64,000 bases of DNA, taken from Eledone cirrhosa. Taxonomy: Eukaryota. Both the position numbers and the translations under genes were made by a program. The notes below the pieces were generated by a model. It was not told the origin of the DNA. It ran no database searches and saw nothing but the letters and a program-made list of their open reading frames with translations. Of the stretch, positions 36,620-63,835 are shown in pieces; the stretch's first letter is position 1; the number at the start of each line of letters is the position of its first letter. Location: positions 7,874,001 through 7,938,000 of the forward strand of contig OZ024764.1 in NCBI GenBank assembly GCA_964016885.1, read 5' to 3'.

Positions 36620-37380
36620 GCGTGAATGCGGTCAAGTTGAGCTAGATAAACGTCGCTGTTGATATTTAATTGCCACGTTTTTGTCCAGAAACCGCCACTG
36701 TTGACGCTCATCGTCGTCATGCAACCAATAACAAATCCTGTTTGAGATGATTTCCCAGTGAATGATTCCGCTTCTGTCCCACCAAACACACCACATTGCC
36801 TTCTTGCACTGGATACCTTTGGGTGAAACACCTGGCGAAACGCAAACCTTCTTTCTTTTGATGTTTTTGAAGAGAAGCCATGATTCATCCCCAGTGACGA
36901 GATTCTTCAGGAACGGAGTTTGCTCATTTCGCTGCAGCAAATCGGTAAAAATTCGGACACGTTCGGCTTTGTTGTTATCGGAGAGTTTGTGGGGGACCCA
37001 CCCAGCCAATTTCCATACTTTTCCGAGCTTTTTGAGACGACGAACGATGGTTGAATGGTCCACATTGAAGTCTTTGGCCAACGTTCTTGTTGTCAAGCTT
37101 TCGTCATCTTCCACGGCTGCCAAAAGTGCCTGGTTGTTGAAATTTGATGGTCAACCTCTTCCTTCTTCATCTGCGAGGTTTGTATCGCCCGATTTGAACT
37201 TCCTGAACCATCTTTCAACTTGGCTTTTGCTGGTTGTTCCTTCACCAAAACATTCATTGAGATCGCGAAATGACTGAGGCTGCATTCCAACCTTTCTTGA
37301 AGCGGTAGAGCATAATATGACGAATGTGGATATGATTTTTGATACACATTCTGAAAAGAGAAAAACCCGACCGCCATTTA
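36620..37380 (-). pseudogene. mariner transposase, N-terminal two-thirds, frameshifted
   Basis: HIRHIMLYRFKKG HTH, WVPHKL, LVTGDESW motifs. Confidence 0.9.
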
Positions 37381-38216
37381 AAGATGTTTTTGTTAAATAT
37401 TGTTATTGTTTTTGTTAAATAAAATTTGTTGAAAAATAGCCTCAATAAATATGCACCAACCTTTACAATTGAGTTGGTGATTTTAGTTTTCATTGATGGG
37501 CAAAGGGGGATAACATACTTAGAATTGAAAACGAAAGTATTTAAACATAAGTAAATAAACAAGGGGGAGATAATTTAGATTATTTATATGAGTTAAGTTT
37601 ATTAAATATTATAATAATTGTTTCTACTTTAGGCACAAGGCCTGCACATACCCCGGTGTATTACTGGTACTTTAATTTTATCGACCCCGTAAGGATGAAA
37701 GGCAAAGTTAACCTCGGCAGGATTTGAACTCAGAATGGCAAGGGCCGTAACTGTATGCGTCAAAGCATGGCGTCTGACCCTCTACCGATACTGCCAATCC
37801 ATTATAATAATGTGTGGCGCCCACACACATTATTAGCTATTTGAAAAGAGGGATGGATTTCGCAACTGACTGCACCAGGGTTCCTGTTCCCTAGGGAACC
37901 ACACTATATGGGCGACAGGGAATTCTGGGGCATGAGAGTGAGATCCATCATCTCGTCGGTAGTCGAAGAATGATGATGATGATGATGATAATAATGGCAG
38001 TATCGGTAAAGGGTCGGATGCCCTGCTTTGCAGCAAAGAGTTAAGGCTCTATTTGATCTGAGTTCAAATCCCACCGAGGTTAACTCTGCCTCTCATCTTT
38101 ACGGGGTCGATAAAATAAAGTACTGGGATAATTGCTGGCTGGCCTTGTGCCAAAAGTAGAAACCATTATTTGTATTGATATTAGTGGAATGATTATCCTT
38201 ATATTCTAATTCTATT

Positions 38217-38882
38217 CTAAGGCGGGTAAAATTCCCGAGATCCATGGACGAGTTCTCTCCAGCGGTCTCTGTCCCTCATTATCGCTGCCATGTCCTGCGT
38301 CTCCAACAGACCAGTGTCTGTCCTTAGGGCATCAACATACGTTAACCTTGCTCTTCCTCTTCTAGTGTGTCCATGTAGGGGCTCCCAAAGGAGCGCTGAG
38401 TGCAATGTCAACTCTGGATGTCGGTGAGCATGTCCAGCTAACCTCAGTCTCCTCTGTGTCACTTTTGAGCTGACTTTTGGGAGGCTCCCGTACAGCTCTG
38501 AGTTCTTCATCCTCAGTGTATGTTGATTAATGTTCAGAGCCATCCTCAGTATTCTCGTGTATCACCCATCCACCATCTGAGTGAGTTTCTTGGTCAGTGT
38601 CCAAATCTCAGACCCGTACAGCAGCACAGACTCTATATATCTAAGGCGGGTAAAATTCCCGAGATCCATGGACGAGTTCTCTCCAGCGGTCTCTGTCCCT
38701 CATTATCGCTGCCATGTCCTGCGTCTCCAACAGACCAGTGTCTGTCCTTAGGGCATCAACATACGTTAACCTCGGTCTTCCTCTTCTAGTGTGTCCAAAG
38801 GAGCACTGAGTGCAGTGTCAACTCTGGATGTCGGTGAGCATGTCCAGCTAACCTCAGTCTCCTCTGTCACTTTTGAGCTGAC
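38217..38882 (-). mobile_element. RTE LINE 3' fragment plus partial tandem duplicate
   Basis: RRLRLAGHAHRH..LLWEP..GRARLTYVD..DRDRWR; repeated from 38641. Confidence 0.85.
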
Positions 38883-38999
38883 ACATATCCTTATATGAGT
38901 GGGTATAAATATTTTTATCTATGTGTGTATATTTTTGTTTGAGTTGGGGAGTACTTACTGTGATCCCTAAGGGTTCTAGTGATTTATTTTTTTTCATTT

Positions 39000-39795
39000 C
39001 ATGTCCACACGTGGTTTGTTGGCGAAAATCAGATAATCTTTGTTAAAGTAATTTTATGTTGAAGCTGGTACTAATAGTCAGGAACAGCGAAAGTATTTGT
39101 AATAATCAATAATGTAATCTATCTGGCATTTATTAAAAGGGCAGCTTTCGGTGATAATATTATATTTAGTTTGGGGAGCCGTGGTCATACGTCCTTCCTT
39201 GTCGCCATCTTGTAAATTCTATCAGAGTAACCTGCGCTGTTTAATACATTGTTATAATAGTTGGCCTTATTGTCAAAAATATCTTTATTGGCAGAGAGTC
39301 TAGAGATTCTAAGCAGAACACTTGTTAAGTATAGACCTCTTGACGTTTTTAGTGTGGTTGGAATAGTAATTAACATAATTGAGGATTTAATTTAATTTAT
39401 GGTAATAAAGGCCAAATTTAAGATTTAATATTATGCCTACGAAATTGACTATTTTGTTATTTTCAATTTCAAGTTTAAGGCCATAATTATTAAAAAAAGG
39501 TCAATTATAATTTTCTTTTTTCTATTAAGGTCACTATTACTATGGTTATTTACTATAACAAGTGCATTGTCACGATATAAACCTCCAGCAATTTCCTATG
39601 TATAGAGTTATGGTTGAAAAACCAACGAGGTCAGTAACTTTATCTGAGTCCATGGACCCCACGGTAATATCAAAATTTAAAGGTCTGTCAGCTCTGGTCC
39701 AGAGATCACCGTTATATTCTATAAGGTTTTTTCTTGCTGTCAAGATGATGTTTATTTCGTAGCTTGATAGATCTGTGTTTTGTTGGATAAGATAA
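39000..39795 (-). mobile_element. Penelope-like RT fragment, degraded
   Basis: NFDITVGSMD..VTDLVG, Y(R)DNAL; homologous to 61110-63140. Confidence 0.75.
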
Positions 39796-40364
39796 ATTTC
39801 TTTATTATCCACAAGGGCGCAAAAGAATTTATAACAATGATAAATTAAACAATCGAAATCCCCAATAGTGGGGAGGCGTTAAACGGGTTGTACAACCCTC
39901 ATCTCCAGGAACATGAAGAGTAAGCGCTCCCTTCCTCTCTTCTTCCTCCACCTACAGGCCTATATAGAGAGAAGGCCCAGCCACTCGGGCCAGCCTTGCC
40001 ACATTCACCCACCTTTCAGAAAATTTGCTGGGGTGCAGCACCTCTCTCTCCACTCTGGTTCTTCTTCTAAAATGATATTTGAAGAAGCGAACCAGTTGTT
40101 TGCTGGAGAGAAAGGTGTCTGACCCCAGCCCTTTCAGCCTCGTCCACCATATAGTCTCTTTCACCATAGCTATTACACAGAGGAAAACCGCCTCCTCTTC
40201 GTTTTTGAAGGAAGGTGGCGGTTTGATCGTAATAATGGACTCGGTGGTCAACCGGATTTGTCCCACCCGTGACAGTAGTCGTTCTGCATAGCTCCACAGG
40301 TCGGTAACGCCCGGGCAGTGTACGAATGCGTGCGCGACGGTTTCCTCGTCCTGCATCTCAGACA
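39796..40364 (-). mobile_element. Tx1/L1-like LINE 3' end (~570 bp)
   Basis: ETVAHAFVHC zinc-binding motif; 3' end gcgcccttgtgg..AATAAAG shared with the copy ending at 46167. Confidence 0.8.
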
Positions 40365-40444
40365 TTTTTTTTTTTTTTATTTCAGAAAAAAGTTACAATG
40401 ATAAATTTCCTTTTCGGAATTACTATTTATATAAACAAAGACTT

Positions 40445-40850
40445 TCAGTATTCAGGAGAGTTGTTTAATGGTGTAGGTGAAGGTGAATTTCTGTGAGAAT
40501 CCATTAATTTTGCGTATTTTCGCCATCTGCATTCATTTGGTCTGTTTTCTTTTTCATCGGACTCTTCGTCTTCTGATTCGGGCACGACGACGGTGTCCCC
40601 GCTTCTAGGAGGAGACGGAGACCGAAGTCTACGTCGTCTTTCTCTATCATTTTCTCTTTCACATTTTTCTCGTTCGAGTCTGTTGTACTCGTCTAAAACA
40701 TGAGCGAGATTTTCATCAGACGACGAGCTATCTTCATGTGCTAAATTGAAGAAGCAATGTTCATAGAAAAGCTCATTCCAAATAAATGGATTTAATTTTT
40801 TTTTTACATACTGCAGGACAGGTGCTTTGGCTTTAAACAAGAATTCAGTA
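40445..40850 (-). pseudogene. Parvovirus-like NS1 C-terminus (variant B)
   Basis: YTEFLFKAKAP..KKKLNPFIWNELFYEHCF parallels YTEFLFTCSP..KKKLNPFIWNILFYEHCF of ORF 41332-42702; followed by an AT-rich UTR and an A14 run (40378-40365). Confidence 0.85.
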
Positions 40851-41235
40851 TACGTGGTCGGGTCAATAATCTCTAATACTCCGTATGAAAAGAAAAAGCT
40901 AGAACATTCAAACGAATTTTATTTGAAAATACATTCAATACTAGTAAAGAAAACATTAATAAAGTTATTTTTCAATGTAACCTCCATTGTTTACAACCAT
41001 CTTTCGCCATCTTAACAGTAATTCTTCAAACGCCGCTTTGAAAAATGAATCATCCAAAGAGTTCAAATATTCATTAACAAAACTTTTGAGTTCCTCTCCA
41101 GTTGCAAAGTGATTACCACTGAGCTCTTTCTTAAGCAGTCTGAAGAAAAAGAAGTCACTTGGAGCAATGTCCGGACTATAAGGAGGGTGAACGAGTTGAT
41201 GAAAGCCACGTTTTTCAATGCATTCTTGTGCAAGT
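40851..41235 (-). mobile_element. mariner 3' fragment inserted in NS1
   Basis: HPPYSPDIAPSDFFFF..RWRKMVVNNGGYIEK*; right end terminates at a TA (40851-52). Confidence 0.88.
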
Positions 41236-41460
41236 TTTGGTAATGAATGCTACTTTTTCTGCTAAAGGAGCATTCTGGTCGAATTTGTTGTTGCTGGTGA
41301 TGATGAGTGGAGTTCTATTTACTAGTTGGTCTTATTTGAATTTAACAGTCACTTCCGTGTCAACTCCTTCTGCCAACTTTTTAAATGTTTGTAACGTTTC
41401 TAATGTGAAGTTAGGTTCTTTGATTAAACCTATCTCGACGTTAATTAAATTCTGGAACTC
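41236..41460 (-). pseudogene. Parvovirus-like NS1 helicase segment (variant B)
   Basis: FQNLINVEIGLIKEPNF..KFK*DQLVNRTPLIITSNNKFDQNAPLAEKVAFITK; diverged duplicate of Walker B to motif C. Confidence 0.85.
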
Positions 41461-42898
41461 GTCTAGAATGTGACATAGGTTATCATCTGACGAATTGCTG
41501 TCTTCATTTATCATGTTACTGAAGCAATGTTCGTAAAACAAAATATTCCATATGAATGGATTAAGCTTCTTTTTTATGTACTTTAAGAAAGGCGAACATG
41601 TGAAAAGGAATTCCGTGTATCTGGTTATGAATGCAATTTTTTCTGATAAAGGAGCGTTCTGATCGAACTTGTTATTACTTGTAATGATTAATGGTGTCCT
41701 ATGAACTATTTGGTCCTGCTTAAACTTTATGGCTACTTCTGTGTCTATTCCTTCTGCCAATTTTTTAAAGGTTTGTAGAGTTTCTAATGTAAAATTTGGT
41801 TCTTCTATCAAACCAATTTCTACGTTTATGAGATTTTGAAATGGGAAACTACTTGTACCCTGAATTGTGGAGACATGTGTAAACATGTCAGCAATGCTTC
41901 TTGCAACCATAGATTTACCGGTGTTAGGTATACCTCTTAATACTAAGAGATTTCTTTTCGTTTTTTTTTTAGTTAGTAGTTCCCATACCGTATTTACAAA
42001 TGTGGCTTCTGGCAGATCTTGTGTGAGTATAATCGATTTCAAAATTTTGAGTGAAACGTCTCTGTCCATATAGTTCTTATTATTGTCAAAGAATTCCCAG
42101 TTCATTGATTCGAATTTATCTTTGAATGACATATTTAGTGTTTTAAGTTTTTCACATTCTAATACTTTCTTCATGACGCTGTCGTACATTGGGTGTGAAA
42201 TTGCTCTCGTGAAGTCGTTGTTAGTTCTATGTAGCCAGTGTGATTTCATATCTTGTTCGCTTCTAAACTTTTTTGAGGTAAAGATGTAAGATAAGTAATT
42301 GAATAATATTAACGTAGTGCCCGATTTCGATTTAAATGATGGTTCTTCTTGTGCTGTAACTGGTAATTTGCTGGTTGATGCTTTTGGTTGTACGTTTGGT
42401 TTTTGTCTATATTCCTGTTCACACCATTCAGAAAATGTTTCGTTGATTTCGTCAATGCCTTGTATCAACAGATATCTTGGAGGTTGACAAAAGTAGTTTG
42501 CCATACTACTGGAAAATTTGATTCTTTGACATTCTGGTATGTAGCGTACCAACTTGGTTGCTTTTTTGTACAAACTTCTTATATATTTTAGCCGTTGGTT
42601 TTCGCCCGGTCTTTGTAAACTGTGCCATATAATATGGAAGTGGTTGAAGGCGTCCCATTCCTTTTTCGCGCATAAAGTATTGTTCTTTGGATGATAAATC
42701 ACTGTTGCTCCCTCAATGAACGAAATCTTTTATCTTGTAGTTGCTGCTAATTTGGTATGTATCCTTACGTGTTTCGTCATCGTTATGTTCGTTAATGTTG
42801 AGTTCAAAATGTTTAATTGGTCCAGCTCCTTGGTGCCAGTAAAAGTCGTTTGTTTCTATCCAAGGATAGATACACATGTATAACTTATAACCTGAGTT
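41461..42898 (-). pseudogene. NS1: Parvovirus-like NS1 (HUH endonuclease + SF3 helicase), variant A; one frameshift near 42720
   Basis: HFHIIW (HUH), GIPNTGKS (Walker A), IGLIEE (Walker B), FKKLAEG (B'), PLIITSN (C); ORF 42713-42961 supplies the N-terminal part in another frame. Confidence 0.9.
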
Positions 42899-42932
42899 CT
42901 GAAATGGAAAATGGTTACATTGTAATATTACT

Positions 42933-44285
42933 TTAACGATGTGCTTGGCGAGTTTTACCAACTCTCGTTATTTCATAATTACGTAAACCTTGTGGCCATT
43001 TACATAGGTTAGTTTTAGCTGAATTCATTATTGTTGCGTTAGCTGTACCCCAAGCCATCCACCCCATTGTTTGAGGACTGCCAGATATATATTCGAAATC
43101 TACTTCTGAATAATAAGTAATTGTTATCGTGAATGATATTTTTGAAGGGTTATTTTGAGAGTCTAATATAGGTACTGAATCTAATGTTGCTATTGGTGGA
43201 GGATTTGATGGATTAACCGGAAATTGCGTTAAATGTGACCGACCCGTATTTTCTTCTTCTTCAGTTTTATCTACTGCTAAATCTTTGCTCCATGTTCCGT
43301 CTTTAATCGGTGCCCATTGCGATTTTTTAGCTCCTGAATATGTATTTATTTCACATGGTAGACCGTTAGTTAATTTAATTGTTGGTGGTTCGAAAGTTGT
43401 GTTGAATGCGTAGTACCCCATAAGCGAAAACCAACTAGGTGTTCTGTTAACCCATGTGTATGTTGCTGTATCCCCTGCATATAAGAATTGGAAGTCCCCT
43501 GTATTTAGGTATGATAGTATTTCTTCTGCTGGCATTTCTTGATCCGTAGCGGTTGCTGCTTTTATATCTTGCCATAACCACCAGTCTTTTCTAATTAATC
43601 TGTAGCTTTCTATTGGTGCTAGTTTCCCTTCGTCCCTAGTTAGTGGTATGTTATGTGTCCAGTTATGATTTAAGTGAGCTATATTCCATGTTTGGTTTGG
43701 AAATAATGCATATTTATTATCTACATAATGTATCATCCATGGTCTTGTGTTAAATGTTGTGTTGGTTGTAGTAGTGTTTTGTAACGTTCCTAATTCGTCT
43801 GTAAGTGGTATTATGTTCGATATTTTGTAACCGCATGATTTAACTCTGAAGTTGCTACATGGTGTTAAGTATGTTTTTAGTTCTGCTATCGTCATACTCG
43901 CTTTTAACTCTGTGTAAGGAATTAAAGCTGCTCTATGTTTAATCATTAATTCTATATATTCTGCATCGTGTTGTTTGTAATATGCTTTATCTATCGGATT
44001 TTCTGAACAATTTATGTAATGTATGAATGTTCTTGAGAATTTTTTTGAGACTATTGGATTTATGTCCCCTATTACTGGTGGTTGATCCCCTTGTGCTAAC
44101 GCTTCTGACCCTCCTGGTGATGGTCCTACGTGTGGATCCCCCATTGTTGGTGTTTCTACTATGCCACTATCTTGTGATGTTGCCGCGTTTACTAGATCTT
44201 GATCTGATATTTCGCAACCGTCTTGATTTTTATGTGATTGTTCTTGTTCTTGTTCTATTCTCCTCTTTTTCTCAGTCGGTGGCAT
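42933..44285 (-). CDS. VP: Parvovirus/densovirus-like major capsid protein, uninterrupted 450-aa ORF
   Basis: KKRR NLS-like start, Gly/Pro-rich N-arm, LIPYTELKASMTIAEL..FRVKSCGYKI motif typical of parvoviral VP; in frame with upstream PLA2 and adjacent to NS1. Confidence 0.75.
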   Translation of the reverse strand: MPPTEKKRRIEQEQEQSHKNQDGCEISDQDLVNAATSQDSGIVETPTMGDPHVGPSPGGSEALAQGDQPPVIGDINPIVSKKFSRTFIHYINCSENPIDKAYYKQHDAEYIELMIKHRAALIPYTELKASMTIAELKTYLTPCSNFRVKSCGYKISNIIPLTDELGTLQNTTTTNTTFNTRPWMIHYVDNKYALFPNQTWNIAHLNHNWTHNIPLTRDEGKLAPIESYRLIRKDWWLWQDIKAATATDQEMPAEEILSYLNTGDFQFLYAGDTATYTWVNRTPSWFSLMGYYAFNTTFEPPTIKLTNGLPCEINTYSGAKKSQWAPIKDGTWSKDLAVDKTEEEENTGRSHLTQFPVNPSNPPPIATLDSVPILDSQNNPSKISFTITITYYSEVDFEYISGSPQTMGWMAWGTANATIMNSAKTNLCKWPQGLRNYEITRVGKTRQAHR

Positions 44286-44507
44286 TACAAAGTTTTTTCC
44301 TCTTATAATATTCCTTACTAAGAACGCCGATACTCCGCTACTTTTTTTACTTCACTCGATTAGTTTGTTGTCAGCTTCTAATATAGTTATATCTGTTCTG
44401 TCTAAATCGTGTTCTCTGCAGCACTTGTCTAATTCATTCAAAGGTTTGTTGTTGTAATTGTTTGTGTATGGTCCACAGTAATTATAATATGGTAAATGTA
44501 AAGGGAT
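44286..44507 (-). pseudogene. VP1-unique PLA2 domain, variant A (ATG>ATC, in-frame TGA)
   Basis: IPLHLPYYNYCGPYTNN..NELDKCCREHDL..KLIE*SKK..NFV reads in frame into MPPTEKK; TGA at 44354-44352. Confidence 0.85.
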
Positions 44508-44517
44508 GATTACTTAT

Positions 44518-44571
44518 CGCGAGTTCTGCCAACATTGTTGCATCTCGTAGCTTTAAATCTTCGTAACTCAT
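44518..44571 (-). CDS. 18-codon leader exon candidate, variant A (donor reads ATAAGT)
   Basis: MSYEDLKLRDATMLAELA; homologous to 45320-45373. Confidence 0.55.
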
Positions 44572-44644
44572 CTTGAGTAGTAGCGAAGTATCGACGTTCT
44601 TCTTTTGGCGTGTATTTCTGTTGTGCTAATTTGAAATGCGCGCC

Positions 44645-44700
44645 TTGATATTTATACTGTTTTTAATGCTGACTATGCTTTTAATTTTGCCTACGTGTTT
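44645..44700 (-). promoter_or_regulatory. Viral promoter candidate A
   Basis: TATAAA at 44656-44651, 80 nt upstream of the leader ATG; ACGTAGGCAAAA upstream, as in copy B. Confidence 0.5.
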
Positions 44701-44842
44701 GTATTTGAATTATTGCTGTCGCAGCATTAATATTCCCGCTGTAATTGATATCTTCAATGTGATTGGATAAGCTGCCTGCTCTCTGCACTGCCCTTTTGGA
44801 AAGGGAGACAAGCCGGTCGGGAGGGAGGTGGAGGAATCCTAA

Positions 44843-45312
44843 GTATTTTGCTTACTATCGGATTTCTATCTCCATTCGACGGTGGCTGATCTCCTGTAGC
44901 CATCGAAGCTGCACCTCCTGGTGCTGGCCCAACATGAGGATCTCCCATGTTTTGAGATTCGTTTATTCCGCTGTCTTGTGATGCAACTGCGTCAATCAAA
45001 TCTTGATCCGAAATGTCGCAACTATCTTCTTGATATTTTTCGATTCTTCTTGTTCGATTCTTCTTTTTTTAGGAAAGACAGGAGGCATTAGTATATTTTT
45101 TGCCTTAATTATATTCCTAAGAACGATGATACCCCACTAATTTCCTTACTACAGTCTATTAATTTTTTATCTGCGTCTTCTGTTAATATATCTTGTTTAT
45201 CATAATGTAAGTCATGTTGTCTGCAGCAGTTATCTAATTCGTTAATCGGTTTCTCTTGAAAGTTATTAGTGTAAGGCCCACAGTAATTATAAAATGGTAA
45301 ATGTAATGGCAT
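44843..45312 (-). pseudogene. PLA2 + capsid N-terminus, variant B, frameshifted and truncated
   Basis: MPLHLPFYNYCGPYT..NELDNCCRQHDLHY; then MPPVFPKKRRIE..SQDSGI..MGDPHVGPAPGG..NPIVSK. Confidence 0.88.
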
Positions 45313-45319
45313 GACTTAC

Positions 45320-45373
45320 CGATAGTTCGTTCAACATTGTGCTATCTCTTGCTTTTAAATCTTCGTAATTCAT
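45320..45373 (-). CDS. 18-codon leader exon candidate, variant B, with consensus donor
   Basis: MNYEDLKARDSTMLNELS|GTAAGT (45319-45314); the PLA2 ATG follows at 45312. Confidence 0.6.
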
Positions 45374-45454
45374 TATTGTTGGTTTTATGTTTCAGTGGAG
45401 TATCGTTGTTCTTTTCAGCGCGGGCCCTTCTGCCTCTGTGACAGATTTTTCCGC

Positions 45455-45505
45455 GCAATGGTATTTATATGCTATTGTTTTTGTTTTATTTTTGCCACGT
45501 TTCAT
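45455..45505 (-). promoter_or_regulatory. Viral promoter candidate B
   Basis: TATAAA at 45469-45464; ACGTGGCAAAA upstream. Confidence 0.5.
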
Positions 45506-45564
45506 TTAGTCAGCATATTTTAATATCCAATCAGAATTAATCTTAGTCAGCAAAATATTTCCCG

Positions 45565-46150
45565 CCACATAGTAATGAATATTTTAGCTATTCGTTCTGG
45601 CCTCATTTGGACCAGAACTTCCAGGCTAGTACCATTAAATATGCCCCTGGGGGACTTTCCTATTGAAATTAATGTGTCTTCATCGAAGTTGATGAAGCCA
45701 CATAAAATCCACCAAATATTTACGTTTGGTTGGATGCACGACACTCTTATTTTCTGTGTCCTTTTTCCCGTGTATGGGGGGGAAAAAGATGAAAGGGGGG
45801 GGGGGGGGACACAATTGGCGACACAGAATATTTTTGTGGCGTCAATTGGTCTTTCATGAGGACCGAAATGCTGCCAAAAAGTTTACCTTTTTGTATGAAG
45901 GTAATGTCCTTGATTGAGTCTTTTAACACCAGTTCAATTTCATTATGAGTCAATTGAACTGGTTTTCTTGTGGCATTAGATATTGTTCTAAAAACTAATG
46001 TTCTAAAAACATTTTCTCTGCTTAACTGTTGGGGTGAAGTAATGCTGAAGGTAACATTCTCCCCAAAAGTCACGTGTTGTTTTGCATCTTCCAGTAACTC
46101 TCTAGCATTAGTGATGTCGGTTTGCGTGTAAATTTCCGTTTTTTTTTACT
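45565..46150 (-). mobile_element. LINE ORF1 fragment
   Basis: FRTLVFRTISN..GSISVLMKD..PNVNIWWILCGF; homologous to 50250-50690 and 52200-52680. Confidence 0.7.
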
Positions 46151-46166
46151 GTTTGCAGATAGTTAT

Positions 46167-51303: not shown

Positions 51304-51652
51304 ACGGTTTGGTTTGTTTTTGTGTGTTGTGGTGGTCGTGTTCTAATTAAACTATTAAAAGCATCACATACCGTTTACACTGTAGGTTATAAGAATTCTG
51401 CTTTTGTGTTCAGACTGATACGGCGTGGTTGTATAAATTAGCTCTGTAAAATTAAATCTAATCTATCAAACTTTTTGTTTGCGGTTTGGTTTGTTTTTGT
51501 GTGTTGTGGTGGTCGTGTTCTAATTAAACTATTAAAAGCATCACATACCGTTTACACTGTAGGTTATAAGAATTCTGCTTTTGTGTTCAGACTGATACGG
51601 TGTGGTTGTGTAAATTAGCTCTGTAAAATTAAATCTAATCTATCAAACTTTT
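51304..51652. repeat. ~178-bp direct tandem duplication
   Basis: cggtttggtttgtttttgtg..ctatcaaactttt occurs twice. Confidence 0.85.
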
Positions 51653-51989
51653 GAAGAAAAACTCACGCACCTTTTACACCAGTTTGTGAGAAAAATTCCT
51701 GCATTATGACAGATATGGCATGGTAAACTGGACATATACTTCCCCGAAATTTACAGACGCCCTTGACCTCATAAGTCAATGCGCGCTTGCGTGCACAAGT
51801 CTCGTCTGCATTCTCACATGCTTTTATTTTTGTGAAGCTCCGAAACGCGCGTATGTGAAAATGCACTCAATCAATGCGTCAACACATGAATTTTATAAAC
51901 CGATGGCAAGATCACTAAAACGTACAGCTCATCAAAATTTTGAGCAAAGCGTACAGTTTTGTACGAACGTACAGTCATCGGCAGCACTG

Positions 51990-53030
51990 GTGTCTGTATG
52001 TGTTTTTGCAGTGGTTTTAGGTGGAGTGGGACTGTTTGTTTTGGTTATTTTTGTGTGTTGGTGTAGTGGTGGTGGTGGTGATTGTGTTATTCTGATGGGT
52101 GTCGGCAGAAGAGTCTTTTTTTTTTTATTCATTAATTGAGGACAGGAAGCCCTCAGGTGACCCCCTACTAAAGCAGTGGCAACATGAAGGCAGCCTACCC
52201 TCAACCGAAAAGTTTATGTAGGTGAATCCGTCCAGGAGTACATGTTGTGGAGTCCTAGCTATTCATTCTGGGCTCATTTGCACCAGAACTTCAACGCTAG
52301 TCCCATTAAATACATCTCTGGGGGACTTTCCTACTGAAAGTATTCTGTCTTCATCAAAATTGATGAAGCCGCACAGTATCCACCATATGTTTACCTTTGG
52401 GGTGACACTCGTGATTTTAATCTTTTCTGTCCTTTTTCCCATGCATGTGGTGAAAAAGGTATACAGGTTGGATACAATTGGCAACACAGAGTAATTTTGG
52501 GCCGTCAATTGATCCTTCATGAGTACTGAAATACTCCCAAAGTGTTTGCCACTTTGAATGAATGAAATATCATTCATTAAATTTTTGAAAACCAGTTCAA
52601 CCATTTTGAGGGCAGTTTCCTTAGGAATTTCTACAGGGGACTTGATGCTGAAAGCACCATTCTTTTCAAAAGTAACATATCTCCTAGCGTCCTTTAGAAG
52701 TTGTTCGGCATTTGATGTCGAGATATGTTAATTCCTCCTTTTTCTGAACTATCTGTGCAAAGGAGATTTTTGGTTTCTTTGTGGAATTGTCCGTGTTGGT
52801 GGTGTTGTCATTATTGTTGTTGTTCTTCTTGTTGTCACATGTTGTTGATATTGTTTGTATTTTCCTTGGTGTTGGTGTTGTTGTTGTCTTTGATGCTGGT
52901 ATTATTGGTGTTGTTATTTTTGTTGTCATTGTACTGTTTGGTGACATTTGTGTCATTATTATTTTTGTTTGGATTTAAATCAGCTTTTACGATTTTATTT
53001 CTTCTTTCCATCTCCAAAGTATCTATGGAG
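51990..53030 (-). mobile_element. LINE ORF1 fragment
   Basis: FGSISVLMKD..PKVNIWWILCGF..GHLRASCP; Thr/Asn-rich N-terminus. Confidence 0.7.
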
Positions 53031-53618
53031 AAGGAAAGGGAAGAGTAAGACGTTGACTGCAAGCTATGTAGTCTTACTGACTCTCCACTCCCATTATTGC
53101 CAAACACAGCGTTCATAGCGTAACCAAACTTCTTAACGATTTTTTTCAAAGTTCAATAGAGAAAAATTTTTTCAAACAAATATTTCGCCCCTGGGAGTTG
53201 ACCCAATGCCTGAAGGTCCAGATGGGGGGTCAAGTTACACAACAATATAAAATTTAAATGAAAACTCCCGGTTTTTCCTACATAAATTTACAGAAACCTC
53301 TCCGCGAAGTTTCACGTTTATTTTTGCACATATGCTCCATCTAGGTCAATACACATCTGTAAGAGTTGATACCAGCCTTTAAGTCTATCTTTGTAAAACT
53401 GGGGGCCATGTGATTTAAACCATATCAAAGCAGCTTTTTTTTACACCTTCAACTGGGGATCATCTTCAACTTCATCTCTTCCACTTCTAAAACACAAAGA
53501 ACAGGTCCAAGCAGATGACCCTGTTGGACCCCTGAGGGCAGATAGAATTAAATGGTTGGTCACCGAAGGAGAGGTAGGAGGCTCAAGTTAGGTTTGCCAA
53601 GGAAATTGATAAAGCTGC

Positions 53619-53652
<34 letters not shown>

Positions 53653-53713
53653 GGAAAACCGTAGCTATGAGGTCATGTCATTCCTTTGGTTTTTTATTTA
53701 GAAATAATTTGTT

Positions 53714-54621
53714 TCATATTTCTGGAAACATATGACGAATATGTTCCAATAATGTTTGGAATATGTCATCGTTAACTTCATAGCGCCACATGAATTCAAT
53801 TAGATGGGATTGAAGCAAATTCCTGGCTGTTCCATTTTCTCTTTTATTCCGATTCTTTACATGTTTCCACAAGCATTCTATGTGGTTAGTTGTGGCAAAT
53901 GTTACAGGAACAGCAAAATTGATGGAATGGTTTACAGTCAAATGTTGATAGCCTAGCTGATTGATCGTATTATAGGAGCGCCAGAGGTCAGAAATTATTG
54001 TCGTACCAGGCAATATACAATCTTGTATAACTGCTAAAAGTGTGTCTGCTGTCCGGTCTTCCACTGCCACTAAAAAACATTTTCTGGTATCTCTTTCAAA
54101 GCACCAAAGACCCACTGTGTTTTAACCTGATGGCCAACATTGTATTTCCTTCTGACGAAGGCGCTTTCGTCAGTCTCAACAGTTCGGATTGGCCCACCAA
54201 GCTTAATGTTTTGTGCCACATAATATTCTGCAAATACATCACGGCAAAAATTTCGCCAATCTGCTACGGCTACATTCGCGATACGAGATTCCTGTGAAAT
54301 CCCCTTGGCTAAATCTTCTTTTGCCCAATAATACAATATGTCAATTATTTGTTGACACTTCAATTTTCTAATTTCTAGAAATGTTCCTTTTCTAATAGAT
54401 ACCATTTTTCTACATGGCCTTCCACATGACCAGATAATTCCATCTGACACATTTTTTTTCACTCCATCCATACGTTCACCACATGAAGGGCAGACCTTTT
54501 CAGTATTCAGAAGTCCATGTTGTTTCAGACAATTAATGCTATCTGCAGTAGTAGCGGTAGCGATGGAAATATCGCGATGATTAATTCCATTTATGTAGAA
54601 TTCATATTTTTCAAGTTGCAA
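53714..54621 (-). pseudogene. Merlin/IS1016(IS1595)-like DDE transposase, frameshifted
   Basis: CPSC..WSC zinc ribbon, VETDES, RKYNVG, WVFG, IISDLWRSY, VNHS, TNHIECLW. Confidence 0.9.
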
Positions 54622-54889
54622 ATCCGTGTATTATCGCAAAGGGAAAAACCTAGGTTTGCATCAACGTGGTGATTTCAGAGAGAGAAACCTTGAATGATTT
54701 ATTTACACGTGGTGGTGGTGGTGGTGCTGGTCCCCTAAGGGCAGATAGAATGAAATGGTTGGTCACCGAAAGAGAGGTAGGAGGGTCCCAGTTAGGTTTG
54801 CCAAGGAAAGTGATAAAGCTGCAGTTTTCTTTTTTCATGGAAAACCCTAGCTATGAGGTTATGTCATTCCTTTGGTTTTTTTATTTAGA

Positions 54890-56706
54890 AATAATTCGTT
54901 TGATATTTCTGTCCAGTTTTAGTTGCATGTTAATCTGATGAAGATATCTGACTGACCAAATTTTCTGACATAGGCCATTGCATCTTGTGTATGTTCATAC
55001 ATGTAACGTGGTCTTCCCGAGAAGCTTGATGGCAGTATGACTGGGTGGTCAATATTTCTGGGGTGACCATCAGAATTTATGGCAGTATGACTGTGTGGTC
55101 AATATTTCTTGGGTCACCATCAGAACTAATGGTTGTATGACTGGGTGGCCAATATTTCTGGGGTCACCATCAGAATTAATAGTAGTATGACTGGGTGGCC
55201 AATATTTCTGGGGTCACCATCAGAACTGATGGTTGTATGACTGGGTGGCCAATATTTCTGGGGTCACCATCAGAATTTATGGCAGTATGACTGGGTGGCC
55301 AATATTTCTTGGGTCACCATCAGAATTTATGGCAGTATGACTGTTTGGTCAATATTTTTTGGGTCACCATCAGAATTTATGGCAGTATGACTGTGTGGTC
55401 AATATTTTTTGGGTCACCATCAGAATTTATGGCAGTATGACTGGGTGGCCAATATTCCTAGGGTCACCATCAGAACTGATGGTTGTATGACTGGGTGGCC
55501 AATATTTCTGGGGTCACCAGCAGCACTAATGGTTGTATGACTGGGTGGCCAATATTTCTGGGGTCACCTTCAGAACTGATGGTTGTATGACTGGGTGGCC
55601 AATATTTCTGGGGTCACCATCAGAACTAATGGTTGTATGACTGAGTGGCCAATATTTCTGGGGTCACCATGAGAACTAATGGTTGTATGACTGGGTGGCC
55701 AATATTTCTGGGGTCACCATGAGAACTAATGGTTGTATGACTGGGTGGCCAATATTTCTGGGGTCACCATGAGAACTAATGGTAGTATGACTGGGTGGCC
55801 AATATTTCTAGGGTCACCATGAGAACTAATGGTTGTATGACTGGGTGGCCAATATTTCTGGGGTCACCATGAGAACTAATGGTTGTATGACTGAGTGGCC
55901 AATATTTCTGGGGTCACCATGAGAACTAATGGTTGTATGACTGAGTGGCCAATATTTCTGGGGTCACCATGAGAACTAATGGTTGTATGACTGGGTGGCC
56001 AATATTTCTGGGGTCACCATCAGAACTAATGGTTGTATGACTGGGTGGCCAATATTTCTGGGGTCACCATCAGAACTAATGGTTGTATGACTGGGTGGCC
56101 AATATTCCTAGGGTCACCATCAGAGCTAATGGTTGTATGACTGGGTGGCCAATATTTCTGGGGTCACCATCAGAATTTATGGCAGTATGACTGGGTGGCC
56201 AATATTTCTTGGGTCACCATGAGAACTAATGGTTGTATGACTGGGTGGCCAATATTTCTTGGGTCACCATGAGAACTAATGGTTGTATGACTGGGTGGCC
56301 AATATTTCTTGGGTCACCATGAGAACTAATGGTTGTATGACTGGGTGGCCAATATATCTGGGGTCAGCATCAGAACTAAGGACATCTTTAAGGTGGATGT
56401 TGCTCTCTGCCCTCAACTTAGTTTGATTCCTTCGCAAGAAAGCCAATTTCTCTGTTTCAATTTTGCATACTTGTCCACCATGAACTGGCTGGTTACTTGT
56501 TTGAATTGCAGAAGTTGGTTGAAGTGATCTCGTACCATGAAATGATAAGCAGCTAATTGATGAGTCATGTTCTAGTCCTGTTCCTGGGTTGATCTGCTGC
56601 AACTGAAAATGATATCCATCTTGACCATTCCAGAAGATGAGCAGATATTGGAGTGAGTCATAGGCCCCGTGAGTTTCACATATTTGCCCCAACTGTCCGC
56701 ATTTGA
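54890..56706 (-). mobile_element. Helitron Rep fragment interrupted by a 50-bp satellite (~55030-56380, ~27 copies)
   Basis: YDSLQYLLIFWNGQDGYH, KIETEKLAFLRRNQTKLR, VILPSSFSGRPRYM..QDAMAYVRKFG..IFIRLTCN. Confidence 0.88.
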
Positions 56707-56924
56707 AAAATGACCAATGTCAATATTTAAAATAGTCTTCTACACATGGAGTATCGCAGGTTTTTTTCACTCGTATTTAAAGAAACAACCCTCGTTATGG
56801 TATAACGTTGTTCAAAAGAGATGCCCCACCCCACAGCTACCATCAGCTATAATCTATAATCGCTCTGTACCTTTCTATGAAGCTGTCATCCTTTTCTAAA
56901 TGATTTTAGGATTTTATGAATGCA

Positions 56925-57600
56925 GGAAATAGTTAGTTGTTGTTTTTTATTTAGTACATGGCTGTGATGCTTGTTACTGCTACCTATTTTGGCTATCAAG
57001 ATGTCTGCTGAATCAACTTCCGTGAGTGAAGCTCCAATGCCTTCTTTGGCCGAAGATGCAGGGTCATTGGCTATGGGGTGGGGATAAGGAAATAGTTAGT
57101 TGCTGTTTTGTATTTAGTACATAGTGATGCTTGTTACTGCTACCTATTTCGGCTATCAAGATGACTGCTGAATCAACTTCCGTGTGTGAAGCTCGAATGC
57201 CTTCTTTGGCCGAAGATGCAGGGTCATTGGCTATGGGGTGGGGATAAGGAAATAGTTAGTTGCTGTTTTGTATTTAGTACATAGTGATGCTTGTTACTGC
57301 TACCTATTTCGGCTATCAAGATGACTGCTGAATCAACTTCCGTGTGTGAAGCTCGAATGCCTTCTTTGGCCGAAGATGCAGGGTCATTGGCTATGGGGTG
57401 GGGATAAGGAAATAGTTAGTTGTTGTTTTTTATTTAGTACATGGCAGTGATGCTTGTTACTGCTACCTATTTCGGCTATCAAGATGTCTGCTGAATCAAC
57501 TTCCGTGAGTGAAGCTCCAATGCCTTCTTTGGCCGAAGATGCAGGGTCATTAGCTATGGGGCGAGGGGGTGGGGGGGGGGGGGGGGGAATAATTAGTTCT
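56925..57600. repeat. ~163-bp tandem repeat (4 copies) at the end of a Penelope GIY-YIG fragment
   Basis: ggaaatagttagttg..gccgaagatgcagggtcatt recurs. Confidence 0.85.
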
Positions 57601-57937
57601 TGTTTTTTATTTAGTAAATTATCCTTAAATTTCATGATTTGGAACAGTTTCTGTGAACACAATTGGCACTCCCTTCTTTCCCGTTCATATGACTTAGTTC
57701 CCTTCAGGACACTCCATTTTAGGTTGTAGGCTATATTTTTCATTTAAAATTTAACAGTTTTGGCTAGTGAGGTGGTATTAGCTAATTTAAGATTTTTATA
57801 GGAATGAGTGTGAGAATAAAATCTTCTCTTAAATGAATTGGAGGTTGCACCTACTTAGGATTGTGGAGTGTCTTTAGTAATGACCTTACATTTATATACA
57901 ATACTGCTAATTAAGCAATTGCCATTAAGGGGGCAGT
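57600..57937 (-). mobile_element. Penelope-like GIY-YIG endonuclease fragment
   Basis: CPLNGNCL..IVYKC..*VGATSNSFKRRFYSH..KWSVLK..CQLC. Confidence 0.8.
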
Positions 57938-58095
57938 GTGAAATGATAAGCAGCTAATTGATGAGTCAGGTTCTTGTCCTTTTCCTGGGTTTATCTGCTG
58001 CAGCTGAAAATGATATCCATCTTGACCATTCCAGAAGATGATTGGAGTGAGACATAGGCCCCGTGAGTTTCACATATTTGCCCCAACTGTCTACA
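57938..58095 (-). mobile_element. Helitron Rep fragment (third copy)
   Basis: Similar to 56538-56706. Confidence 0.75.
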
Positions 58096-58727
58096 TTTAA
58101 AAATGACCAATATCAATATTGAAAGTAGTCCTCTACCCGAGCAGTATTACAGATTTTATTTTCATTTGTATTTAAACAAACAACCTTCATTATAGTATAG
58201 CATTGTTCAAAGGAAATGTTGCAGGGGAGACAGTTGAAAAAAATGGTTTAAGTTATGACGTTTATTTTTCAACGTATGCTCCATCTAGGTCAATACACAT
58301 CTGTAAGAGTTGATACCAGCCTTTAAGTCTATCTTTGTAAAACTGGGGTCCATGTGATTTAAACCATATCAAAGCAGCTTTTTTTTACATCTTCAACTGG
58401 GGATCATCTTCAACCTCATCTCTTCCACGACACTACAACGTAATTTGCTATCAGAAGTGAATGTAGAAAAATGTGACGTCATTCGTCAACCTTCGTTTAT
58501 TTCCATATCACCACGCTGGTGCAAATGTAAAATTTATTATCAAGTTTTTCAAGTTAAGTTAAGTTTAAAAATAAATATATTTTCATAGTCATGGTTATCA
58601 AATTAGAAAGCAAATGAAGTTAAATTTATAAATAAATATATGTTCCTTTTTTTCACCAACCTTATACATTTATGAAGAATATGTATCTGTTCCAATAATA
58701 TGTTTCAATAATATTTCAAAAGCATGG

Positions 58728-59623
58728 CTACATATGACGAATATGTTCCAATAATGTTTGGAATATTTCATCGTTAACTTCATAGCGCCACATGAATTCA
58801 ATTAGATGGGATTGAAGCAAATTTCTGGCTGTTCCATTTTCTCTTTTATTCCGATTCTTTACATGTTTCCACAAGCATTCTATGTGGTTAGTTGTGGCAA
58901 ATGTTACAGGAACAGCAAAATTGATGGAATGGTTTACAGTCAAATGTTGATAGCCTAGCTGATTGATCGTATTATAGGAGCGCCAGAGGTCGGAAATTAT
59001 TGTCGTACCAGGCAATATACGATCTTGTATAACTGCTAAAAGTGTGTCTGCTGTCCGGTCTTCCACTGCCATTAAAAAACATTTTCTGGTATCTCTTTCA
59101 AAGCACCAAAGACCCACTGTGTTTTAACCTGATGGCCAACATTGTATTTCCTTCTGACGAAGGCGCTTTCGTCAGTCTCAACAGTTCGGATTGGCCCGTC
59201 AAGCTTAATGTTTTGTGCCACATAATATTCTGCAAATACATCACGGCAAAAATTTCGCCAATCTGCTACGGCTACATTCACGATACGAGATTCCTGTGAA
59301 ATCCCCTTGGCTAAATCTTCTTTTGCCCAATAATACAATATGTCAATTATTTGTTGACACTTCAATTTTCTAATTTCTAGAAATGTTCCTTTTCTAATAG
59401 ACACCATTTTTCTACATGGCCTTCCACATGACCAGATAATTCCATCTGACACATTTTTTTTCACTACATCCATACGTTCACCACATGAAGGGCAGACCTT
59501 TTCAGTATTCAGAAGTCCATGTTGTTTCAGACAATTAATGCTATCTGCAGTAGTAGCGGTAGCGATGGAAATATCGCGATGATTAATTCCATTTATGTAG
59601 AATTCATATTTTTCAAGTTGCAA
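58728..59623 (-). pseudogene. Merlin-like transposase, second near-identical copy
   Basis: Same motifs and same frameshift as 53714-54621; offset 5002 nt. Confidence 0.9.
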
Positions 59624-59891
59624 ATCCGTGTATTATCGCAAAGGGAAAAACCTAGGTTTGCATCAACGTGGTGATTTCAGAGAGAGAAACCTTGAATGAT
59701 TTATTTACACGTGGTGGTGGTGGTGGTGCTGGTCCCCTAAGGGCAGATAGAATGAAATGGTTGGTCACCGAAAGAGAGGTAGGAGGGTCCCAGTTAGGTT
59801 TGCCAAGGAAAGTGATAAAGCTGCAGTTTTCTTTTTTCATGGAAAACCCTAGCTATGAGGTTATGTCATTCCTTTGGTTTTTTTATTTAGA

Positions 59892-61112
59892 AATAATTCG
59901 TTTGATATTTCTGTCCAGTTTTAGTTGCATGTTAATCTGATGAAGATATCTGACTGACCAAATTTTCTGACATAGGCCATTGCATCTTGTGTATGTTCAT
60001 ACATGTAACGTGGTCTTCCCGAGAAGCTTGATGGCAGTATGACTGGGTGGTCAATATTTCTGGGGTGACCATCAGAACTGATGGTTGTATGACTGGGTGG
60101 TCAATATTTCTGGGGTCACCATCAGAATTTATGGCAGTATGACTGGGTGGCCAATATTTCTGGGGTCACCATCAGAATTTATGGTTGTATGACTGGGTGG
60201 CCAATATTCTGGGGTCACCATCAGAACTAATGGTTGTATGACTGGGTGGCCAATATTTCTGGGGTCACCATCAGAATTTATGGTTGTATGACTGGGTGGC
60301 CAATATTTCTGGGGTCACCATCAGAACTAATGGTTGTATGACTGGGTGGCCAATATTTCTGGGGTCACCATCAGAATTAATAGTAGTATGACTGGGTGGC
60401 CAATATTTCTGGAGTCACCATCAGAATTAATAGTAGTATGACTGGGTGGCCAATATTTCTTAGGTCACCATCAGAACTAATGGTTGTATGACTGGGTGGC
60501 CAATATTTCTGGGGTCACCATGAGAACTAATGGTTGTATGACTGGGTGGCCAATATATCTGGGGTCACCATCAGAATTGATGGTTGTATGACTGAGTGGC
60601 CAATATTTCTGGGGTCACCATGAGAACTAATGGTTGTATGACTGGGTGGCCAATATTTCTGGGGTCACCATCAGAATTGATGGCAGTATGACTGAGTGGC
60701 CAATATTTCTGGGGTCACCATGAGAACTAATGGTTGTATGACTGGGTGGTCAATATTTCTGGGGTCACAATTAGAACTAAGGACATCTCTAAGGTGGATG
60801 TTTGTTATTCTCTGCCCTCAACTTAGTTTGATTCCTTCGCAAGAAAGCCAATTTCTCTGTTTCAATTTTGGCATACTTGTCCACCATGAACTGGCTGGTT
60901 ACTTGTTTGAATTGCAGAAGTTGGTTGAAGTGATCTCGTACCATGAAATGATAAGCAGCTAATTGACGAGTCAGCTTCTTGTCCTGTTCCTGGGTTGATC
61001 TGCTGCAGCTGAAAATGATATCCATCTTGACCATTCCAGAAGATGAGCAGATATTGGAGTGAGTCATAGGCCCCGTGAGTTTCACATATTTGCCCCAACT
61101 GTCCGCATTTGA
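59892..61112 (-). mobile_element. Helitron Rep fragment with 50-bp satellite (~60030-60780, ~15 copies)
   Basis: Duplicate of 54890-56706; QFMVDKYAKIETEKL. Confidence 0.88.
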
Positions 61113-61975
61113 AGGTTTCCTGGCTATCTGACAGAGAAGAAATCCTACGGGATACGCTATTTACTATGGCCCTCTTGACTGACCCGGGATGATTGGAGTT
61201 GGCATTTACGTACTTGAGGCACTCGTTCGGCTTGTGGTATGGGTAGTAGAGGCCAGATTCTAGATTGAGGGTAACATCCAGGAAGTTGACTACCTTTCTA
61301 TTATTTTTTATGTTTATGCTGAGGCCCAGGTTTTTGAAAAATCTAATTAAGCTCTTTCTCATCCTATTTATCATGCTGTTTCTGTGGTCGAGTAACGTGA
61401 ACAACGTATCGTTGCGGTATATTCCACCACCTAACGATGGGATCTCGCCTTTCAGGTTCTTGAGGATGTAGAGGCCCACCAGGTCAGTAACCTGTGCCAA
61501 GTCGCTCAATCCCATTGTGATGTCAAAATTGTCCGGCCACTCTCTCCTAGTCCAGAGCTCACCATCGAAACCTATCATTGTCTTCCTGGCAGTATGAATG
61601 ATGTTAATTTCATCTCGGGTTAAATCTGTATGGCTGCGTGCAAACATAAGTGCCTTGTTAAGCACCACCGGGGAGATAGATGCTTAATAATTACATATAT
61701 CTAGCTGTATAAAATTAGACCTACCTTTGCACTGCAGAGCGTTAAGCCACTCTATCACTTCCCTCCGTTCTGGACCATTGCTGTAATTGGATCTTTTTTT
61801 AAGCGTTGGTATGATTCTGTCCAGTATTCTTTTGCTTATACTCCCGATGTCAGACCTTGATGGCACTATGTCTGACTGGGAGTTCAGTTCCGATGTTCGG
61901 TTTGTGATCCTTCAGCAAAATACAGGGTTCTCTGAGTTGGAAAGATCCGGTCCTATCCGCAATGCTGAGTTTATT
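61113..61975 (-). mobile_element. Penelope-like RT fragment
   Basis: FIQLDICNY, NFDITMG, IYRND, VNFLDVTL, YHKPN..SNHP. Confidence 0.85.
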
Positions 61976-61977
61976 TA

Positions 61978-63140
61978 CTATTCTATTAGTCCGCTCGTTA
62001 ATGTCGTCAGGTCGTAATTTAAAAAAAATTCTATAATTGTTTTCTTTACCCTATTTAGTTCACTATTGCTATGTTTAACTGCAGTAAACAATATATCATC
62101 TCTATATAAACCACCGGTAATCTCCGGCAGTTTTCTATTTATCATATTAAGGATAAAAATTCCCAGAAGATCGGTAACCTGTGCAGAATCCGACAATCCC
62201 ATGGTAATGTCGAAATTTTTTTGCCTATCAGAACGAGACCAAAAATCATTATTAAAATTAATCAAGGTTCGTCTAGCCGTTCACTAGATAAATCAGTATG
62301 TTTATATGCGTAAGATAAAGCCTTATTCAAAAGATTAGGTGTTATAGATGAGTAGTAACTGGCTATGTCCATTTGAATAAATTTATGATTTTTCTTATTT
62401 TCAATGTTCCTAAACCAATCTATTACTTCACTAGTGTCCTTCCATAAGATAAGCTTTGACTTCAATTTTAATGTTGGCAAAATTCTATCTATAATATTTT
62501 TACTAATTATTCCAATGTCCGACTTAGAAGGTGCTATAAGTCTAACCAGAAAGTCCTCTTCGAAATATCCTTTGTGGTCTTCAAAATTTATCCGCGTTTG
62601 CCTTCGTATGAAAGGTTCGGTCTTTCTTTCAATTCCGAGTTTGCCGATTATTTCAAACGTATCATTATTGATATCTACTAGATCCTCCTTTCTGTAATTC
62701 TTTCTCAATTCTTTTATAATTAAGTCCTTATATTCTGTTTTTGCTATCCCATATAAGTTGTTGGTTTTGTCTGACTTCACTAATATTTTATTGACTTTTT
62801 TTTATATCAATAATTTTTTTCTCTCAGACTTCTAAGGTATTCCTGGCTTTTATATGGGTTTGTTTTTCTTAAATTTTATCCTCCTTAATATATTAAAAAT
62901 TTCACATTCAAAATCTTCCAGGAGTTTGTTGTATGAAGGATTTTTCCTGGATTTGAAGATGTTTTCAAAATTACTGTTGTTGTTTTTCCTGTTTGTTTCT
63001 TTATTCTTGAAATGAAAAGCACGCCACCTCAATCTTCTTATGAAGGAGTTTGTTTGCCCAATAAGCTTCTTCATGTATTCCTCATTAGATGGTAAAGGTA
63101 TATCTTTGAAAGATGTAGAGAACCTAAAGAGTTCCATCAT
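61978..63140 (-). mobile_element. Penelope-like element, N-terminus and RT (second diverged copy)
   Basis: FIRRLRWRA, KSDKTNNLY, RLIAPSKSDIG, QMDIASYYSSI, FDITMG, LYRDD. Confidence 0.85.
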
Positions 63141-63337
63141 TTATTAATTGATAATCTATTGTAGAATAAGCGCTCTACCTACAGGGAGCTAAATATGACC
63201 AAAAGTTTAACAAGGTTCATTGATTAATCAATGAATATAGTTTTGCAATAGATTAGAAGCACTCAACAGAGGGGTTTCTGGAGTTATTAATATTACTTCA
63301 AAATATTAATAAATATAGACATTCATGTGATCAAATA

Positions 63338-63384
63338 TATTTTATTATATATATTTCATCAGTACGTCCTCATCAGATAAAATA
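63338..63384 (-). ncRNA. Degenerate minimal hammerhead ribozyme upstream of the Penelope ORF
   Basis: TATTTTAT-CTGATGA-N12-GAA-ATATATAT-A-ATAAAATA: 8-bp stem I and palindromic stem III; stem II poorly paired. Confidence 0.45.
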
Positions 63385-63835
63385 AGTTGATGTCTGACAT
63401 ACCTCAATTGTGCTGATGGTTCAAATCCAGTCTTGGCAGTGATTAGTTATGACAAAACTCAATATTTATATACCATAGGTAGTAACATGACAAACTACAT
63501 ATAATTGAGAGGGTACGTAGGAAAACGTGTATAAAATAATACAATAAGTATATATATTCTTGTGATGAAGGACTAGCGTCCAAAACGTTAAGACCCTCTT
63601 CCTGCTATATCAAGCATTAACCTAATATATCCCTTCCATATACTGTACCGATTGTGTTGTTATTTCTGTTTACCTACATACACATATATATATACACATA
63701 CATATATATATATATAATAGTGAACACATTAATAAACATGGTATATAATATGAATGACATTCAGAGTTACCCCACATCCCCACTCCCCATTGTTGGTGGG
63801 GGAGTATTTTTCTTCCCCTCTGAATTATATATATT

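Follow-up and report, generated by a model that had tools for sequence, protein, structure and literature searches.

A 64,000-nucleotide window of the Eledone cirrhosa genome (3.0 Gb; contig OZ024764.1, G000:C25:7,874,001-7,938,000) raises the question of why fragments of transposable elements (TEs) and of a parvovirus, packed behind a Jade-like PHD gene, all read on one strand. A first-pass annotation had proposed this block as a candidate unistrand, 'flamenco-like' cluster giving rise to PIWI-interacting RNAs (piRNAs). The block is a real, non-random feature. With moderate confidence, the 38-63 kb TE and parvovirus array, which lies antisense to Jade, is considered a candidate unistrand piRNA source, and its putative plus-strand precursor would probably arise from read-through past the Jade 3' end.

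Strand bias in the block and at further loci

The open reading frames (ORFs) at 36-64 kb were scanned against Pfam. The 89 minus-strand ORFs of at least 55 aa gave matches to mariner, Parvo_NS1, parvoviral PLA2, RVT_1, IS1595/Merlin (two copies) and Helitron (three); the 91 plus-strand ORFs were without a credible match, the sole row being a sub-cut-off domain of unknown function (DUF; E 0.009). A protein library was compiled from Pfam-checked ORFs of the fetched loci and some ORFs labelled by sequence motifs, and the same library (330 of 547 cluster representatives and 43 further ORFs) was searched by tblastn against every region. Between 36,635 and 63,137, all 17 elements, from seven families, lay on the minus strand with a coding cover of 75%, compared with 16 plus and 24 minus elements and a cover of 11% in 237 kb of flank (block vs flank, Fisher p 0.0012). 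Collapsing local duplicates left 14 events in seven families (p 1.2e-4, uncorrected for where one looks), and counting each family once gave p 0.016. Since the capsid and NS1 genes are natively on the same strand in this virus, they entered the strand count as one event. The names RTE, Tx1 and Penelope were assigned from Pfam domain sets and sequence motifs and not from a repeat database. The first-pass annotation had described the coding fragments as all minus and some as local duplicates; both statements were borne out over 36.6-63.2 kb.

No high-copy segment of a short interspersed element (SINE) was found from 38,176 to 64,861. The 22.2 kb of unmasked sequence in this interval formed the longest of 116 SINE gaps in 264 kb, the next-longest being 7.2 kb and the median 0.3 kb. 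Tandem Repeats Finder (TRF) reported almost no microsatellite at 36-60 kb, and the annotated near-absence of SINEs and (TA)n runs was therefore confirmed. The annotated start at 36,620 was only partly retained: the first mariner (36.6-37.5 kb) is indeed on the minus strand, but it sits among SINEs of both orientations, so that the block proper begins at ~38.2 kb. Three DNA contigs from one sample (X1-X3, with X1 and X2 showing no differences) span the junctions at ~40,366, 41,239 and 41,457, which argues against a mis-join; these contigs possibly come from the assembly's own source and are not independent evidence. No RNA sample was listed for 40,400-50,000, which has no bearing on expression.

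Background was sampled in twenty 30-kb stretches taken at fixed fractions of eight chromosomes, which at 600 kb is a small sample. These contained 43 plus and 46 minus elements from at most four families per stretch, with a mean cover of 15% (maximum 41%) and a slight excess of same-strand pairs (55%). The longest one-strand run was five, and the comparison with the genome background called for in the annotation thus found such runs not to be common (none of the 20 controls exceeded five). Four of the controls had no detected coding TE, two of these being fully masked as tandem repeat.

About 30 kb was also read around 13 other capsid-bearing loci and nine held-out NS1 loci, the virus loci on C998, C14, C10 and C841 and at C5:102.8, C3:37.5, C4:377.9, C1:373.5 and C2:180.5 Mb falling outside this reading. 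Non-viral neighbours were on the virus strand in 71 cases and opposite in 29 at the capsid-bearing loci, and in 37 and 19 cases at the NS1 loci. Co-orientation was bimodal, with four of the 22 loci lying in long, microsatellite-poor one-way blocks (Table 1). Together, the five blocks had 106 of 112 events in one direction, their edges having been drawn after the fact, and a sparser run on C27 had seven of seven non-viral elements one way. DNA-transposon events were on the block strand in 24 of 26 cases (p 1e-5). Among the 92 non-viral events in the blocks, 38 came from the DNA, Helitron and long terminal repeat (LTR) families; in the controls, these families made up 7 of 89 elements (p 1e-7). 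All viral pieces of the Jade-side block and 17 of 18 in the other four followed the block strand, an enrichment that in the latter is not independent because those blocks were found through viral pieces. The C18 block was found with a library not built from C18. Segmental duplication between blocks was rejected, as the Jade-side block shares no junction with those at C2, C12 and C25:0.58 Mb and has only family-level matches of 65-90% to them (C18 was outside this comparison).

The Jade-like gene is on the plus strand, with its first exon ~15 kb left of the window. [quoted passage not shown] Its homologues have EPL1 and PHD domains, and among them are Argonauta and chiton proteins and one named Jade-1-like. 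Between the last Jade exon and the block lie 12-14 kb. To the right of the block, the nearest host-like gene is a minus-strand F420-oxidoreductase/ferric-reductase ORF ~48 kb beyond it, which we take to be STEAP-like. This ORF (534 aa; L015:7770-9371) and a BRF1-like one (820 aa; L019:2158-4617) are both single-ORF, minus-strand genes, 48-83 kb from the block.

Table 1. Features of the window (positions in the window) and of the four further blocks
Feature	Position	Strand	Remarks
Jade-like PHD gene, last coding exon	21888..24566	+	PHD/zf-HC5HC2H exons; candidate read-through driver
Boundary zone, four high-copy SINE segments in both orientations	36163..38176		
Mariner 5' part with terminal inverted repeat	36616..37461	-	HTH_48, Transposase_1; at most 95% identity to other genomic copies
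3' end of a long interspersed nuclear element (LINE; RTE-labelled) with internal partial duplicate	38216..38882	-	
Penelope-like reverse transcriptase fragment	39215..39830	-	65% DNA match to Penelope-like stretches at other loci; merged with neighbouring LINE in the tblastn element count
Tx1/L1-type LINE 3' end	39842..40366	-	
Parvovirus NS1 3' part and 3' untranslated region (UTR)	40380..41457	-	78% identity to adjacent copy in overlap; ends in AATAAA and A run
Mariner 3' part, young, nested in NS1	40849..41239	-	98% identity to other copies; terminal inverted repeat ends at TA
Parvovirus copy: promoter region, PLA2-bearing capsid gene, NS1	41458..44845	-	Open frames of 472 and 465 aa; Parvo_NS1
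Third viral variant, capsid gene 5' part	44846..45581	-	Phospholip_A2_4; 71% identity to adjacent copy
Tx1/L1-type stack	45581..53100	-	ORF1 parts, one long ORF1-ORF2-3'UTR copy, further 3' end; RVT_1; holds a 73-bp array and a 177-bp duplicate
Merlin transposase copy 1	53703..54729	-	DDE_Tnp_IS1595
Helitron fragment with 50-bp minisatellite	54900..56823	-	Helitron_like_N
Penelope-like C-terminal piece and short Helitron piece	57594..58218	-	
Merlin copy 2 with 3' terminal inverted repeat, and Helitron	58428..61113	-	Local duplication: 58,694-60,780 is 96% identical to 53,703-55,779
Two diverged Penelope-like reverse transcriptase fragments	61111..63208	-	
C2 block	345.36-345.42 Mb		~52 kb
C12 block	8.965-9.10 Mb		~140 kb, largest seen
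C25 second block	0.58 to beyond 0.64 Mb		>57 kb
C18 block	15.035-15.088 Mb		~53 kb

Minisatellites that arose from TE coding sequence were noted at 48,866-49,363, 55,035-56,379 and 60,037-60,780, and the 73-bp array flips orientation internally. On C2 (345,363,000-345,446,000), the plus run flips at ~345.42 Mb to a short minus run (Helitron, LTR, Penelope-like, Tx1), the layout expected of a bidirectional cluster whose promoter is central. The C18 stretch (15,035,000-15,091,000) has 17 one-way elements; their strand also carries C2H2-bearing ORFs and long ORFs without an explanation. In the C12 stretch (8,965,000-9,105,000), nine or more viral pieces occur together with a gypsy-like element and Penelope-like copies in a tandem array. 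An intronless Helitron ORF of 2,134 aa (L057:2356-8757) lies near a virus copy on C27, and a related 6.4-kb Helitron is in the C12 block (9,056,856-9,063,240). Beside the C27 virus copy are two repetitive ORFs of ~500 aa with DUF6806 matches (L204:8508-9998 and L205:2-1594), both on the block strand.

Origin and proposed retention of the pieces

The ends of the DNA transposons were inspected for their mode of arrival. The first mariner begins at its 5' inverted repeat; other genomic copies share this starting base and also have the inverted end. In the second, the 3' repeat is present and terminates at a TA within NS1. Merlin has retained its 3' repeat, and a Merlin of the C2 block has both terminal inverted repeats. 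At least the mariners and Merlin were thereby shown to have inserted at the DNA level. Paired inverted repeats were seen at only two DNA-transposon fragments in the blocks, both Merlins, and most are therefore truncated. Because mariner, Merlin and the virus are DNA-level insertions, their orientation was not set by an RNA chain. Cut-and-paste transposons generally insert in near-random orientation, and with 24 of 26 co-oriented, a filter acting after insertion would be the simplest reading. A purely negative filter cannot explain why density is five- to seven-fold higher or why rare families take the place of common LINEs; both would be accounted for if antisense pieces were positively retained in a piRNA precursor.

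If the block is a piRNA source, elements would land in either orientation behind Jade, and processing of the precursor would give piRNAs directed at the families they match, perhaps also at the virus, which would thereby be silenced. Antisense insertions would be kept for that reason, and sense insertions and SINEs would be lost from the block. A plus-strand precursor fits the upstream Jade gene, which is on the same strand, with read-through being slightly preferred over a promoter of the block's own near 36-38 kb. The C18 block similarly starts ~2.4 kb after the FAN1 stop and is antisense to FAN1, and the C25:0.58 Mb block is antisense to an FKBP-type TPR exon ~19 kb upstream on the plus strand, so that a read-through-type position is found at two of the four other blocks. 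Piwi-domain exons (Piwi or Ago clade) are present at four genome loci. Depletion of poly(A) signals was considered as support for read-through and rejected, the counts between Jade and the block being 7 vs 7 and those across blocks inconsistent.

The same antisense arrangement would be produced if the block lay inside a long plus-strand transcript (an extended 3' UTR or a long non-coding RNA), from which sense insertions were purged because they terminate or mis-splice it, with no piRNAs involved. The Jade introns agree with this, since their coding fragments lean to the minus strand (five of seven) and the minus-strand run continues over 23 elements, from 1.5 to 90 kb. The annotation had described TE fragments of both orientations in these introns, which held for the SINEs (mixed in three of four types) and less so for the coding fragments. 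The plus strand of the block is also low in AATAAA (7 vs 34), but this depletion is absent or weak elsewhere (80/87 on C12, 34/32 on C18). Purging alone only lowers density, yet the cover is 75% against 11-15%, and rare families and the virus are enriched. A long transcript of this kind is therefore regarded as unlikely, though worth keeping in view.

A distinctly improbable explanation is a young, functionless insertion hot spot, shaped by nested insertions, deletions and local duplications and one-stranded by chance or local preference. The fragments are young (identity to the nearest copies is 98% for mariner, up to 93% for Merlin and 89-92% for the capsid), local duplicates are present, like lies beside like (three viral variants, the Tx1 stack, Penelope-like pairs), and same-strand pairs are slightly in excess even in the controls. 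Chance or local preference would nevertheless have to recur in five blocks with the observed co-orientation, cut-and-paste elements included. The SINE copies on either side of the block are 96% alike, as are the two halves of its internal duplication, so SINEs were active during the block's life, yet none is found in 22 kb. The chance is remote that orientation was fixed in a composite element moved whole, or in an RNA-copy chain for which a Tx1 or Penelope-like reverse transcriptase had jumped between templates. It is true that the pieces are separated by hardly any spacer and that, immediately ahead of a LINE 3' piece, the viral AATAAA is followed by an A run. The inverted repeats kept by both mariners and the Merlins nevertheless largely refute such a chain for DNA transposons, viral promoter and terminal sequence is present, other copies have the AATAAA and A-rich tract as templated sequence, and the blocks compared share no junctions.

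Several points weigh against the interpretation as a piRNA source. The library was partly built from these loci and so favours them, and the block edges were drawn after the data had been seen. The T-richness of the plus strand (34.5% vs 29% in the flanks; AT skew -0.09 to -0.22) results from A-rich coding strands and is not independent evidence. The 12-14 kb between the Jade stop and the block holds seven AATAAA on the plus strand; by comparison, the majority of core clusters in mosquitoes begin right where the gene ends (10.1101/2022.08.22.504762). A search of 20 kb upstream of the C12 block revealed no gene, and among 111 ORFs from the stretches upstream of this block, the C27 block and others there was no upstream gene for either of these two; the nearest host-like ORF of the C2 block, a zinc-finger ORF, is 27 kb off, past oppositely oriented elements. 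Among the 22 other virus loci, 18 were not in clear blocks, the neighbour counts without the block loci (31/26 and 19/13) were not significant, and blocks at 4 of 22 virus loci against 0 of 20 controls gave a one-sided p of 0.065. Finally, piRNAs derived from endogenous viral elements (EVEs) need not be antiviral (PMC7527727).

The endogenous parvovirus

The virus of the block consists of three variants arranged head-to-tail in 5 kb, 71% and 78% alike in their overlaps, and its NS1 shares 73% identity with a 'nonstructural' protein of Octopus vulgaris. The block copy is co-linear with other genomic copies; in the whole genome, the capsid has 43 matches and NS1 has 29. The long copies that were compared (window 41,335-45,581; L006-L010; G000:C2:163.46 Mb) have the PLA2-bearing capsid gene and NS1 on one strand with the capsid gene upstream, whereas the usual parvoviral monosense order is the opposite. 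A literature search returned nothing relevant on this capsid-first order and no described octopus parvoviral element, paywalled papers and supplements being outside its scope. The capsid protein had no homologue among 2,877 candidates, despite capsid-like features. Upstream, the viral copies have CAAT/TATA-like sequences and, beyond the TATA box, terminal sequence, in one case with a hairpin (read by eye). Retroposition of a viral mRNA was rejected, given this promoter and terminal DNA and the AATAAA and A-rich tract that is templated in other copies.

Capsid copies at C14:8.498-8.502 Mb, C10:49.486-49.493 Mb and on C998 (L007-L010) are all 77% identical to the query over the same span, form inverted repeats and are unlinked. 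This arrangement suggests either that fold-back replication forms integrated recently or that the copies were carried within another element.

Viral pieces are stacked both here and on C12, where four occur in 13 kb. A further proposal, which we judge quite unlikely, is that octopods keep read-through piRNA loci as an ordered, heritable archive of DNA-virus infections, in which successive capsid-first parvovirus strains would integrate as DNA head-to-tail beside viral pieces already present, by targeted, homology- or NS1-guided acquisition and not by random insertion with selection.

Comparison with known systems

The candidate is of a known kind, a unistrand piRNA cluster, and is apparently new for cephalopods. 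Clusters of this kind are characterised by a long precursor made from one strand, antisense to the fragments, and by phased, 1U-biased reads of 25-32 nt that are bound by PIWI and come from a single strand. No described cephalopod piRNA cluster was found in the literature, nor in the available parts of three mollusc small-RNA papers (PMC6128900, PMC12479628, PMC11067994), supplements and paywalled papers aside; PMC12479628 sequenced Octopus bimaculoides small RNA and may bear on cephalopod clusters.

Closer models than flamenco are the mosquito and mammalian read-through clusters and those of slugs, which are uni-stranded. The mosquito core clusters (Qu et al., 10.1101/2022.08.22.504762) are read-through loci that trap antisense viral elements. 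Like the block described here, they are intergenic, downstream of an ordinary gene, with viral fragments antisense and several loci per genome. They differ in holding non-retroviral EVEs and in being backed by RNA, whereas the present block holds a DNA parvovirus and six TE groups. In slugs, most clusters are uni-stranded and densely filled with TE fragments in antisense (PMC11615739; Deroceras, PMC12506671), and no viral content or read-through was noted for them. The mammalian piC-DoG and slug clusters of Konstantinidou et al. resemble the block in their packed antisense TE fragments downstream of genes; they were defined by small RNA, in contrast to the sequence-based definition used here. 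In Drosophila, it is enough for insertions to lie antisense in the 3' UTRs of host genes for piRNA production to begin (PMC13226689). Whether read-through from ordinary genes (Jade, FAN1, the FKBP-type gene) is a molluscan way of making clusters is a question that these loci raise.

[quoted passage not shown] The shrimp fragments are scrambled in order and reading direction, in contrast to the viral pieces here, which follow the block strand.

Flamenco, whose expression is in ovarian somatic follicle cells, likewise has a strand-biased TE block that is predictable from the genome alone. Flamenco-like loci owe their bias solely to gypsy LTR elements, and clusters in synteny extend over 227-1,085 kb (van Lopik et al., PMC10643416). 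The 'flamenco-like' label of the first-pass annotation was therefore kept for the unistrand anatomy and dropped in its strict sense: no LTR-type domain was found in the 180 ORFs of the block or in its tblastn matches, and only three of the 112 events in all blocks were LTR. Unlike flamenco, this 25-kb block has LINEs, Penelope-like elements, DNA transposons, Helitrons and a virus that are all biased. The analysis gives the coordinates of five candidate master piRNA loci in a cephalopod, and their co-oriented cut-and-paste elements would allow the trap-and-select model to be tested across all TE classes and a DNA virus, beyond gypsy.

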